A stretch of 64,000 nt of DNA, from the sequence record PZ452578.1. One strand, 5' to 3'. The notes below the pieces were generated by a model. That model saw nothing but the letters and a program-made list of their open reading frames with translations. It did not search any database and had not been told where the DNA came from. This document shows, piece by piece, positions 7,195 through 54,105 of the stretch (positions are counted from its first letter, which is position 1; each line of letters starts with the position of its first letter). The position numbers and the translations under genes are program-made. This stretch comes from a phage.

Positions 7195-8782
<1,588 letters not shown>

Positions 8783-8810
8783 AATAAAATGGGCCTTGCG
8801 GCCCACTCCT
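8783..8810 (-). promoter_or_regulatory. stem-loop (GGGCC-GCAA-GGCCC) between SD-like GGAG and denA start codon
   Basis: GGAG about 23 nt before ATG with hairpin between; U-rich tail. Confidence 0.4.
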
Positions 8811-9979
8811 TAAAAATATTTTTTAAAACTCATCATAACTTTATCATCAACATCATTATCAATCTGTGCAACAAGGTAAGATGACAGTTCTACTTCTTGC
8901 GGCGCGGATTGAACATTATCAGAATTAAGGTATTCACGAATCCAAGGATATGGATGTTTAACCGGAGCATCGGTAATTGGGCATGGAAGACCACACTGTT
9001 TCATACGAGATACAGTTAAGTAATCAATAAAGCTCCACATGCTATTTGTATTTAATCCAGGAACATCACCATCTTTAAATAAATGAACTGCCCAATCTTT
9101 TTCTTGGCGGTTAACTTCCATGAAAATATCAACTGCTTCTTGTTCACACTCTTGAGCAATTTTAACCCATTCATTGCCATCAATGCCAAGCTGAAGTTGA
9201 CGAATAATATATTGAGTGCCTTTAAGGTGAAGCTGTTCATCACGAGCAATGAACTTCATAATCTTGGCATTACCTTCCATGATTTCCATATTCTTGTGGA
9301 AGTTAAAGGTACATGCAAAAGATACATAAAAACGAATAGCTTCCAATGCGTTGATTACATGGAGGCAAAGATAAAGAGATTTCATCAGCTCTCGTTTGGC
9401 GTATTCAACGACTTTACCAAGTTCATCTTTGCGCCAACCTTCAGACAAAATTCCTTCGTATTCTTCTTTAGCGTTTTCCCATTCACGGGTTTTAACCAAG
9501 ACATCATCGTAATATCGCCCAATGGACTCAGCACGTTTCATAATAGCTTCATCTAATACAATCTCATCAAACACCTTCGATGGATCAGTATAAAGATTTC
9601 GCATGATATGAGTATATGAACGACTGTGAATAGTTTCACTAAAAGTCCATGTAGCAACCCATGTATCAAGGCTTGGGTCTGAAATTAATGACATAAGTAC
9701 AGCAGATGGTGCACGACCCTGAATGCTATCCAAAAGTGATTGATACTTCAGGTTGTTAGTAAAAATATTTTGCTGATACTGAGGAAGCTTATTAAATTGT
9801 GCAGCATCCATCATCAAGTTTACTTCTTCAGGACGCCAGAAAAATGACAATTGCTTTTCGGTTAAATCTTCAAAAACTTTATGACGTTGAATATCATAAC
9901 GTGCAATACCAAGACCTGAACCGAAGAACATAGGTTCTTTTAAAACATCAACTGGATTTGTATTAAAAACTGTGCTCAT
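8810..9979 (-). CDS. nrdB: ribonucleotide reductase small subunit (389 aa), uninterrupted
   Basis: Continuous 389-aa ORF of T4 NrdB length; position next to nrdA. Confidence 0.9.
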   Translation of the reverse strand: MSTVFNTNPVDVLKEPMFFGSGLGIARYDIQRHKVFEDLTEKQLSFFWRPEEVNLMMDAAQFNKLPQYQQNIFTNNLKYQSLLDSIQGRAPSAVLMSLISDPSLDTWVATWTFSETIHSRSYTHIMRNLYTDPSKVFDEIVLDEAIMKRAESIGRYYDDVLVKTREWENAKEEYEGILSEGWRKDELGKVVEYAKRELMKSLYLCLHVINALEAIRFYVSFACTFNFHKNMEIMEGNAKIMKFIARDEQLHLKGTQYIIRQLQLGIDGNEWVKIAQECEQEAVDIFMEVNRQEKDWAVHLFKDGDVPGLNTNSMWSFIDYLTVSRMKQCGLPCPITDAPVKHPYPWIREYLNSDNVQSAPQEVELSSYLVAQIDNDVDDKVMMSFKKYF

Positions 9980-10030
9980 AAATTTTCCACTTAGTTAATA
10001 GATAGTGACTCGTCCGTGAGTCAAATTATA

Positions 10031-29018: not shown

Positions 29019-29023
29019 TAAGA

Positions 29024-29037
29024 GGGGCTTCGGCCCC
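29024..29037 (+). other. stable stem-loop (GGGGC-UUCG-GCCCC) between genes 37 and 38
   Basis: Perfect 5-bp GC stem with UUCG loop, no U-run, just 5' of gene 38 SD. Confidence 0.5.
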
Positions 29038-29049
29038 TTGGAGGTTTAT

Positions 29050-37740: not shown

Positions 37741-37759
37741 AAACAAAAGGGCCGAAGCC
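37741..37759 (-). terminator. stem-loop / terminator GGGCUUCGGCCC plus UUUUGUU
   Basis: Identical hairpin also at 37967-37978. Confidence 0.55.
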
Positions 37760-37765
37760 CTTATT

Positions 37766-37966: not shown

Positions 37967-37978
37967 CCTTAGTTAAGG
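37967..37978 (-). other. stem-loop GGGCUUCGGCCC, second copy, after rIIB
   Basis: Same 20-nt sequence as at 37744-37763; no U-run. Confidence 0.5.
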
Positions 37979-37988
37979 GCCGAAGCCC

Positions 37989-38927
37989 TTATTTAAATTG
38001 TTCAGTAACGTCTTCAACTACTTCGTATTGGCAGGTACGCATTTTAGCATCGTTGTAATCAATCGGAATTGATACTACATCACGCGGATGTACTTTAACT
38101 TTTACAACTCGGCTAGTTGAACTGCCAAAGTGACGAATATAAGATTTAGAACACACGTGCAGACCACGAGAACAAGTTTGTGTATCATCGTCATTCACAC
38201 GAGTACGTGGCATTTTAACTACTTTACCAGGACTGTTATCAAAGGTATTTGAGTGGCAGTCAAAGTAATTGCTGCGAACTACTTTCCAAGCATAGAAGTA
38301 ACCATCTTCTGTAATTTCAATATCATTTGCTACCAAGAAATCAAAGAGTCGAGATACCGCTTTTTGGCTTGGGTTTTCCAACAGATTTTCCAAGAACGGA
38401 AAATAAAATTCAAAGTTTTCACCTTTTTCCATCGAGTCAAGAATACGATCAACCAAACCAGACCGCAATTCAATATTTTGATAGAACAAGCTTCCACCTT
38501 CAATTCGAACATCGCCGGAAATATATTTTTCAACAGCGCGACGAACATTAATTTTTTGTGCCGCTTCTTCCAACTTATCTGCTACGAGCAGATTAAGAAT
38601 TTCCTGGAAGTTTGAATGAGTATTAGGAGTTGCGTTATAAGTTACGCCATCAACAGTAATTGAAATGAATTTTTTAGATGCATTCCAAATAATGTCAGAT
38701 TTAGCAACTGGAGCAATAACTGCATCGCTATTAACTTTAACTGTAATATCACCGCTAATAGTAACTTTAGGGTGTTTAGCTTCTTCAGCATTTTTCAAAA
38801 CACGACGGATTGTGTCAACCGATACACCTTGCCAATCAGCCAATTCCTGTTGGGTGTAATTACCACTTGAATACAGTTTAACAATTTCAGCTTGTTCGTT
38901 TTTGGTCAGGCATTTAATATTGTACAT
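37989..38927 (-). CDS. rIIB: rIIB protein (312 aa)
   Basis: 312 aa, N-terminus MYNIKCLTKNEQAEIVKLY as T4 rIIB. Confidence 0.9.
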   Translation of the reverse strand: MYNIKCLTKNEQAEIVKLYSSGNYTQQELADWQGVSVDTIRRVLKNAEEAKHPKVTISGDITVKVNSDAVIAPVAKSDIIWNASKKFISITVDGVTYNATPNTHSNFQEILNLLVADKLEEAAQKINVRRAVEKYISGDVRIEGGSLFYQNIELRSGLVDRILDSMEKGENFEFYFPFLENLLENPSQKAVSRLFDFLVANDIEITEDGYFYAWKVVRSNYFDCHSNTFDNSPGKVVKMPRTRVNDDDTQTCSRGLHVCSKSYIRHFGSSTSRVVKVKVHPRDVVSIPIDYNDAKMRTCQYEVVEDVTEQFK

Positions 38928-54070: not shown

Positions 54071-54099
54071 AAATGAAAAAAGGACTCCCGAAGGAGTCC
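54071..54099 (-). terminator. rho-independent terminator after soc (same sequence as 641-673)
   Basis: GGACUCC-UUCG-GGAGUCC plus UUUUUUCAUUU. Confidence 0.7.
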
Positions 54100-54105
54100 T
54101 TGAAT

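Follow-up and report, generated by a model that had tools for sequence, protein, structure and literature searches.

How ribosomes find the start codon of denA, the gene for endonuclease II, is the question raised by the nrdB-denA junction of phage sequence PZ452578.1, where a hairpin stands between the only Shine-Dalgarno (SD)-like element and the AUG. The stretch of DNA analyzed in this study (hereafter, the window) comprises 64,000 nucleotides (nt) of a T-even phage of the genus Tequatrovirus, with 98.6% identity here to slur03 and Lutter and 98.1% to T6. An earlier note on this DNA had proposed that the folded hairpin would bring the SD-like element to a normal spacing and that it could also act as a partial terminator after nrdB. 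Our results suggest, with a probability of roughly 0.6, that the junction is a split (hairpin-bridged) ribosome binding site for denA. Sites of this kind are already known from T4 genes 38 and 25, and from the comparisons of sequence described below we infer that denA is a new and unusually widely conserved case.

The nrdB-denA junction and the start of denA

On the minus strand, the elements follow one another in the order in which they had been read in the earlier note, from the nrdB stop codon through GGAG, a single U and the hairpin to the AUG:

8810..9979, minus strand: nrdB, ribonucleotide reductase small subunit, 389 amino acids (aa), intron-free (list of open reading frames, ORFs, and 98.6% identical annotated relatives)
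8806..8812, minus strand: SD element UAAGGAG; UAA at 8812-8810 doubles as the stop codon of nrdB, and GGAG occupies 8809-8806
8790..8805, minus strand: hairpin U-GGGCC-GCAA-GGCCC-A (fold, covariation and RNAalifold consensus), consisting of U 8805, stem arms GGGCC (8804-8800) and GGCCC (8795-8791), and the GNRA loop GCAA (8799-8796), which is closed by a C-G pair
8783..8790, minus strand: U-rich spacer AUUUUAUU from the hairpin to the AUG, 6-10 nt long in relatives and variable in sequence
8372..8782, minus strand: denA, endonuclease II of the GIY-YIG family, 136 aa, AUG at 8782-8780 (ORFs and annotated relatives)
8804..8806, minus strand: in-frame GUG in the hairpin region, denA start of the T4 reference, rejected here as a start

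The last G of GGAG (8806) lies 23 nt from the AUG on the linear RNA, exactly the distance that had been estimated, and the whole nrdB-denA spacer measures 27 nt. This linear distance exceeds the limit of about 15 nt, and the interval is filled by a stable stem-loop. No SD-like tetramer was present between the hairpin and the denA AUG, that is, in AUUUUAUU, and no alternative SD was found at a normal distance from the AUG, which is conserved in all lineages. UAAGGAG can make 7 base pairs (bp) with the 3' end of 16S rRNA, with a computed duplex energy of −7.8 kcal/mol. The stem of the hairpin can be extended to 6 bp by the pair U8805-A8790, and with the hairpin folded the SD would stand 7 nt (6-bp stem) or 9 nt (5-bp stem) from the AUG, inside the functional range of about 5-11 nt.

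Structure prediction agreed with the claim of a GNRA-looped 5-bp GC hairpin. The folding energy of the 30-nt junction was −16.4 kcal/mol, compared with −6.2 ± 2.5 kcal/mol in shuffled sequences (z = −4.15, reached by 0 of 200 shuffles), and the hairpin core alone accounted for −12.2 kcal/mol. The loop C(GCAA)G, being of the GNRA class and closed by C-G, belongs to the extra-stable tetraloops.

The start codon of denA has been placed differently in some records. In the T4 reference (AF158101.6, position 137951) and in KJ477684, denA is annotated as 144 aa from a GUG located 3 nt past the nrdB stop codon, and the Dhakavirus records MN850621 and MN850609 start denA at an AUG at the equivalent upstream place. 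Of 26 lineages, only 3 had an in-frame start, GUG or AUG, at this upstream position, and 11 had a spacer whose length is not divisible by 3. The AUG at 8782 was the sole start common to all 26 lineages, the DenA alignment begins there at a conserved M-K-(E/D)-I-A, and crystallized EndoII (PDB 2WSH) was built on MKEIATEY. On these comparisons, the denA start is the AUG at 8782, giving a protein of 136 aa; the GUG at 8806-8804 was rejected on the rarity of upstream starts, the varying frame of the spacer and the start of 2WSH. A different denA start, which the earlier note had named as a possible refutation, was thus not seen. The start in the T4 reference, placed at a GUG inside the hairpin, is probably wrong, and its position suggests that an SD-hairpin-AUG arrangement was not considered in that annotation. 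Annotation is affected, too: the T4 record and several relatives start denA within the hairpin, and gene callers, to which no SD is visible at a normal distance, will go on choosing wrong starts for such genes.

The T4 literature that we searched cites just two natural split ribosome binding sites, in genes 38 and 25 (PMC3014915); the denA junction would be the third. In genes 38 and 25, the SD lies 22 and 27 nt from the AUG, respectively, and is brought to 5 and 11 nt by structure, and mutations that destabilize these structures lower initiation (PMC3014915). The gene 25 case is backed by reporter and dimethyl sulfate (DMS) data (Nivinskas 1999 and Malys and Nivinskas 2009, as cited in PMC3014915) and is reportedly confined to close T-even phages (PMC3014915).

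The T4 gene 37-38 junction, UAAGGAGAGGGGCUUCGGCCCUUCUAAAUAUG, very closely resembles that of denA in having the upstream UAA fused to GGAG, a GC tetraloop hairpin, 8 U/A-rich nt and the AUG. The spacer is 26 nt in gene 38 and 27 nt in denA, the SD-AUG distance is 22 and 23 nt, and the gene 38 stem also takes in part of its GGAG, as is predicted for an extended denA stem. The two differ in the loop: gene 38 has UUCG, as do most denA junctions outside Tequatrovirus, and the window has GCAA. They also differ in distribution. Gene 38, a late gene encoded on the opposite strand, is found only in T4-type phages, whereas the denA junction is conserved across many genera. We found no description of the gene 38 hairpin as a terminator in the literature searched. 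Gene 25 is like denA in that its only SD (GAGG) is directly upstream of a hairpin whose end is 8 nt from the AUG. Its stem, however, is A-U rich and weaker (7 bp, 3 of them GC; −8.4 kcal/mol in context) and lies inside the upstream coding region, whereas the denA hairpin is intergenic, GC-rich, tetraloop-capped and far more widely conserved. By the same measure as used for denA, the folded spacing was 10 nt in gene 38 and 8 nt in gene 25.

We also scanned for hairpins that have an SD tetramer at most 3 nt upstream, end 4-12 nt short of a start codon and lack any SD-like tetramer between their end and that codon. The scan recovered the positive controls, T4 genes 25 and 38, and denA was the only match in the window. 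In a complete 166-kb Tequatrovirus genome, it returned denA, gene 25 and one AUG that is probably internal and therefore a false match. Four other UUCG hairpins of the window have an AUG within 20 nt (37991, 37762 and 35335 on the minus strand and 29023 on the plus strand); these AUGs are not confirmed gene starts, and an SD-like motif lies in between in all four.

Upstream of denA, the 3' half of nrdB contained no MotA box and no convincing sigma-70-type site, and the stretch downstream of the hairpin likewise yielded no denA promoter. The seeming lack of a promoter of its own suggests that denA is expressed from read-through nrdB transcripts. In the mechanism that we propose, denA would be read from transcripts running through nrdB, and the extra-stable C(GCAA)G hairpin would fold as soon as it is transcribed. 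The anti-SD of the 30S subunit would then pair with UAAGGAG, overlapping the nrdB stop codon and displacing a weak GGAG:UUUU extension of the stem. The 14-16 nt of the hairpin would be looped out, so that the AUG would lie 7-9 nt from the SD in place of 23 nt, and ribosomes might start denA de novo or pass to it directly from termination at the nrdB UAA. In Tequatrovirus, the hairpin together with its UUUUAUU tail is probably also a weak, leaky terminator or a 3'-end protector of the nrdA-nrdB mRNA. The arrangement suggests how expression of a nuclease that degrades host DNA may be tied to the nrd transcription unit.

Comparison of junctions across the Tevenvirinae

Junctions were gathered from 17 annotated phage genomes and, by a DenA profile search, from 50 IMG/VR contigs. 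They included 27 distinct hairpin-carrying variants, that of the window among them, from at least 12 Tevenvirinae genera or unclassified lineages: Tequatrovirus, Mosigvirus, Dhakavirus, Karamvirus, Kagamiyamavirus, Kanagawavirus, Winklervirus, Jiaodavirus and Roskildevirus, a record classified as Marfavirus, Providencia and Serratia phages, and others. All 27 variants follow one plan: the stop codon is joined to an SD-like stretch of purines, and a GC stem, a loop, 6-10 U-rich nt and the AUG come after it. The stem has 4-7 bp, the loop has four bases (five in two variants), the gap between SD and stem is 0-3 nt, and the hairpin-to-AUG distance is 6-10 nt. The distances across the junction were as follows:

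Spacer length: range 24-32 nt, median 27 nt, window 27 nt
SD to AUG, unfolded: range 21-28 nt, median 24 nt, window 23 nt
SD to AUG, hairpin folded: range 6-13 nt, median 8 nt, window 7 nt

The proposal that the hairpin would restore a normal SD spacing therefore gains support at the sequence level, both from the folded distances in the window and its relatives and from their likeness to the geometry of T4 genes 38 and 25. The SD element itself recurs as UAAGG(A/G) or a close variant (UAAAGGA, UAGGAG) in 25 of the 27 variants, most junctions reading UAAGGA, UAAGGAG or UAAGG. The remaining two, Serratia phage PS2 and a relative, have a weak AGAG only (UAAGAGAGG in PS2). An SD motif 3' of the hairpin was found in none of the lineages with a compact spacer.

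Covariation gave the same picture of the stem as folding of the window alone. Six of the seven stem pairs were changed on both sides, 89% of the cells were paired, none of 500 shuffles reached the score, and the RNAalifold consensus returned the same helix. Versions of the stem include GGGCC/GGCCC, GGGAC/GUCCC, GGGGC/GCCCC, AGGGC/GCCCU and GGGAGAC/GUCUCCC. The loop is GCAA in Tequatrovirus, with GUAA in one variant, and C(UUCG)G in 20 of 25 variants outside this genus, the others being UUAG, UUUG or CUUG-type. The mRNAs of T4 are known to contain extra-stable hairpins with C(UUCG)G and C(GNRA)G loops (Tuerk et al. 1988, as described in PMC4371310), and the GNRA and UUCG loops of the denA junctions, closed by C-G, are of these two classic classes.

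Since the loops are nearly all UUCG or GNRA on the sense strand, selection appears to be for a stable RNA and not for a particular sequence or protein site; the comparison points to selection on a stable sense-strand RNA hairpin. A DNA palindrome or protein site is unlikely, as the stem is free to covary in sequence and the conserved loops read as UUCG and GNRA solely on the sense strand. In the same genomes, denA and rnlA overlap by as much as 38 nt or stand as much as 56 nt apart, and the constant nrdB-denA spacer is therefore not simple inertia. From the sequence, fold, covariation, conserved geometry and gene 38-like layout of the junction, we infer that ribosomes use the split site.

Two further candidates for the nature of the hairpin were rejected. 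A stem of 5-7 bp is too short for RNase III, and an RNase III site was rejected on this ground. A known RNA family was ruled out by an Rfam scan, in which no match exceeded the gathering score; the only match, L20_leader, scored 23.4 bits against a threshold of 58.7. This sub-threshold match, at 8775-8901 of the window (minus strand; E 0.049), was judged to be due to chance.

Some lineages have other designs. In Krischvirus ECD7 (L060/L062), a GAAA-looped hairpin follows the upstream gene, the spacer is 50 nt and denA has its own SD, GAGGAAAGG. Yersinia phage fHe-Yen9-01 (L048) and Shewanella phage Thanatos-2 have an ATGA stop/start overlap without a hairpin, and locus L059 has a TAATG overlap, also without a hairpin. 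A hairpin followed by a long leader lacking an SD was found in no lineage examined. These alternative designs fit what would be expected if denA needs either an SD at a working distance or direct coupling. Taken together, the denA junctions are a comparative data set of compensatory mutations, loop-class swaps and alternative solutions across many genera, useful for asking how ribosomes cope with a hairpin lodged between the SD and the AUG.

Three single genomes deserve mention. The hairpin is absent from fHe-Yen9-01, unlike its relative at locus L043, whose DenA starts with the same residues. Serratia phage PS2 (L052) has kept the hairpin, lost the U-tract and has a weak SD. In Enterobacter phage PG7 (NC_023561.1, L008), one coding sequence labelled nrdB is annotated through all of denA (1-931); the junction nonetheless shows TAA, a UUCG hairpin and a normal denA AUG, and the long coding sequence is probably an annotation artefact.

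Pairing of the SD element and the question of termination

Several points weigh against a split ribosome binding site. In some lineages, the SD pairs only weakly, with an energy of about −3.5 kcal/mol for UAAGG and −1.7 kcal/mol for the AGAG of Serratia PS2. In the naked RNA of the window, the SD is predicted to be mostly paired with the U-tract (probability of being unpaired, 0.05), and such pairing would oppose binding of the 30S subunit. The AU-rich spacer could also support initiation that depends on ribosomal protein S1 and needs no SD. Finally, our literature search found no published account of the denA initiation region; older T4 reviews lay outside this search, and an earlier mention is possible.

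The pairing of the SD, a feature absent from the earlier note, arises in the minimum-energy fold, in which the stem is lengthened to 10 bp by GGAGU pairing with AUUUU (three G.U pairs, about −4 kcal/mol more). It is on account of this extension that the SD is predicted to be mostly paired in free RNA, and the GGAG:UUUU pairing could damp denA translation instead of enhancing it. The junction might therefore be a translational damper, in which a 10-bp helix sequesters the SD and the potentially toxic nuclease is kept low or obligatorily coupled to termination at the end of nrdB. Similar extensions are predicted in Mosigvirus, Jiaodavirus and loci L033, L054 and L056, a terminating ribosome would have to open the helix since the stop codon lies within the SD, and the start regions of other T4 nuclease genes are hidden by RNA structure (PMC3014915). 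The extension is weak, however, and it is not conserved: its energy ranges from 0 to −4.2 kcal/mol across lineages and is 0 kcal/mol in at least eight, the probability of the SD being unpaired rises to 0.94, and alignment columns 9 and 26 are paired in only 16 of the 27 sequences. A purine-rich SD facing a U-rich tail pairs by composition alone, and the SD:anti-SD duplex (−7.8 kcal/mol) outcompetes the extension. A conserved SD-sequestering lower stem was thus ruled out, and we consider a damper quite improbable.

The predicted pairing of GGAG also bears on the T4 endoribonuclease RegB, from which the hairpin might shield the denA GGAG, prolonging denA expression relative to other early genes. 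RegB cuts GG^AG in early ribosome binding sites; strong cleavage requires A-rich sequence on the 3' side (GGAGRAYARAA), and a motif held in secondary structure is protected (PMC3014915). The GGAG of denA is the RegB core motif, its 3' context is a GC hairpin and it is predicted to be paired; the sequence after GGAG is UGGGCCGC, which departs from the RegB target consensus. Most other genera have GGA(A/U/C) or GGU at this place and still keep the hairpin, and shielding would leave the conserved layout unexplained. This explanation is very improbable.

The remaining question is whether the hairpin serves the end of the nrdB transcript. It could be mainly a transcript-end element, that is, a terminator and/or a block to 3'-exonucleases for the nrdA-nrdB mRNA, with denA translated through S1 and the AU-rich leader or by reinitiation and the SD being incidental. 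In the window, UUUUAUU (6 of 7 U) comes directly after UGGGCC-GCAA-GGCCCA, and the combination of GC stem, tetraloop and U-tract gave a positive classical terminator score (d'Aubenton-Carafa type, +28). Two of the GenBank records inspected, those of Lutter and fPS-2 (NC_054924, NC_054943), carry "terminator" features on the hairpin, with no experimental basis stated there. The hairpin was not among the terminators called by a consensus scan of the window, probably since that scan lets the stem run on into the U-tract.

Tetraloop hairpins are, moreover, highly enriched in the window, including at gene ends. Counting hairpins with at least five Watson-Crick pairs, at least four G-C pairs and a four-base loop, we found 15, compared with 1.7 ± 1.3 in dinucleotide shuffles (about 9-fold), and 11 of the 15 had UUCG or GNRA loops where 0.13 were expected. 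Most tetraloop hairpins of the window precede a normal SD or follow a gene end, and only that of denA lies between SD and AUG. A weak intrinsic terminator in T4 mobE, in the nrd region, terminates 30-50% of transcription as measured (PMC2790892). It resembles the denA hairpin in its short stem, 4-nt loop, short interrupted U-tract and location in the nrdA-nrdB-denA unit, and differs in its 9-nt stem, its position inside a coding region and its experimental mapping. The Krischvirus hairpin, placed after the upstream gene while denA has its own SD, would likewise suit a transcript-end role, and the stop/start overlaps of the relatives without a hairpin would fit coupling.

The comparison of junctions speaks against this role as the general one. 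The U-tract signature with a positive score was found in only 11 of 27 lineages, the other 16 scoring negative, and Serratia PS2 retains the hairpin and the spacing with 2 U in 8; the hairpin, UAAGG and the 6-10 nt distance are kept where the U-tract is lost. An incidental SD would not persist right after the stop codon in 25 of 27 divergent junctions, and other terminator-like hairpins of the window have a normal SD after them. A MotA-box-like promoter was found only after denA (about 8371), and a denA-specific promoter that would make the hairpin the true end of a unit was rejected, given the nrdB 3' half described above; the junction is thus not the end of a transcription unit followed by a gene with its own promoter. 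An efficient terminator would silence denA because no denA promoter was found. When a terminator lies a few bp past a stop codon, ribosomes repress it almost completely (PMC4824070). Since no more than 4-5 nt separate the nrdB stop codon from the stem, a ribosome following closely would be expected to suppress termination here.

Because the U-tract is not conserved, a denA promoter is lacking and ribosomes would repress the terminator, termination, if any, would be partial and conditional. A terminator role is plausible in Tequatrovirus, and on this comparison termination is not the conserved function of the hairpin. The suggestion of a partial terminator after nrdB accordingly holds up for this genus, with its UUUUAUU tail, positive score and two annotated records, and fails as a conserved feature. 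The literature searched contained nothing specific on RNA 3' ends at the nrdB-denA hairpin or on a terminator after nrdB. We regard a mainly transcript-end function, with an incidental SD, as unlikely.

The two activities could also be combined in one attenuator-like switch within the split ribosome binding site, with the ribosome that completes nrdB controlling both linked functions of the hairpin. A ribosome close behind RNA polymerase would block the terminator hairpin and license transcription into denA; with nrdB untranslated, the hairpin would form and the polymerase would terminate. On read-through RNA, the refolded hairpin would be required to bring the stop-containing SD to the AUG. 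If true, the switch would tie both transcription and translation of denA, and thus of the host-DNA nuclease, to active translation of ribonucleotide reductase. Such a switch is distinctly unlikely.

Other tetraloop hairpins and neighboring features of the window

An identical hairpin, AGGACTCC-TTCG-GGAGTCCT, occurs at 655-674 and 54080-54101 (minus strand), 53 kb apart, and a near-identical pair, AAGGGC-TTCG-GCCCTT, is located at 37747-37762 and 37974-37991 (minus strand), about 230 nt apart. At 29023-29038 (plus strand), the hairpin AGGGGC-TTCG-GCCCCT is followed by UGGAGGUUUAU and the AUG of an ORF starting MAVTGP, which we take to be possibly a T2/T6-type gp38 adhesin. The SD comes after the hairpin at the start of this ORF, whereas T4 gene 38 has it before the hairpin.

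Two further genes of the region lie on the minus strand:

12295-10031, minus strand: nrdA
minus strand: rnlA, RNA ligase 1, also carried by the window

The window lacks the group I intron of T4 nrdB (8810-9979) and has no mobE between nrdA and nrdB (9980-10030). In Lutter, a close relative, a homing endonuclease gene sits between nrdA and nrdB. Just past the denA stop codon (about 8335-8375, minus strand) and upstream of rnlA, there is a MotA-box-like ATGCTTC with TACTAT/TATATT about 15-18 nt on. From its sequence and position, this element is likely to be the middle promoter for RNA ligase 1. A small inverted repeat, CCACA-TGGAG-TGTGG, lies inside this putative rnlA middle promoter.

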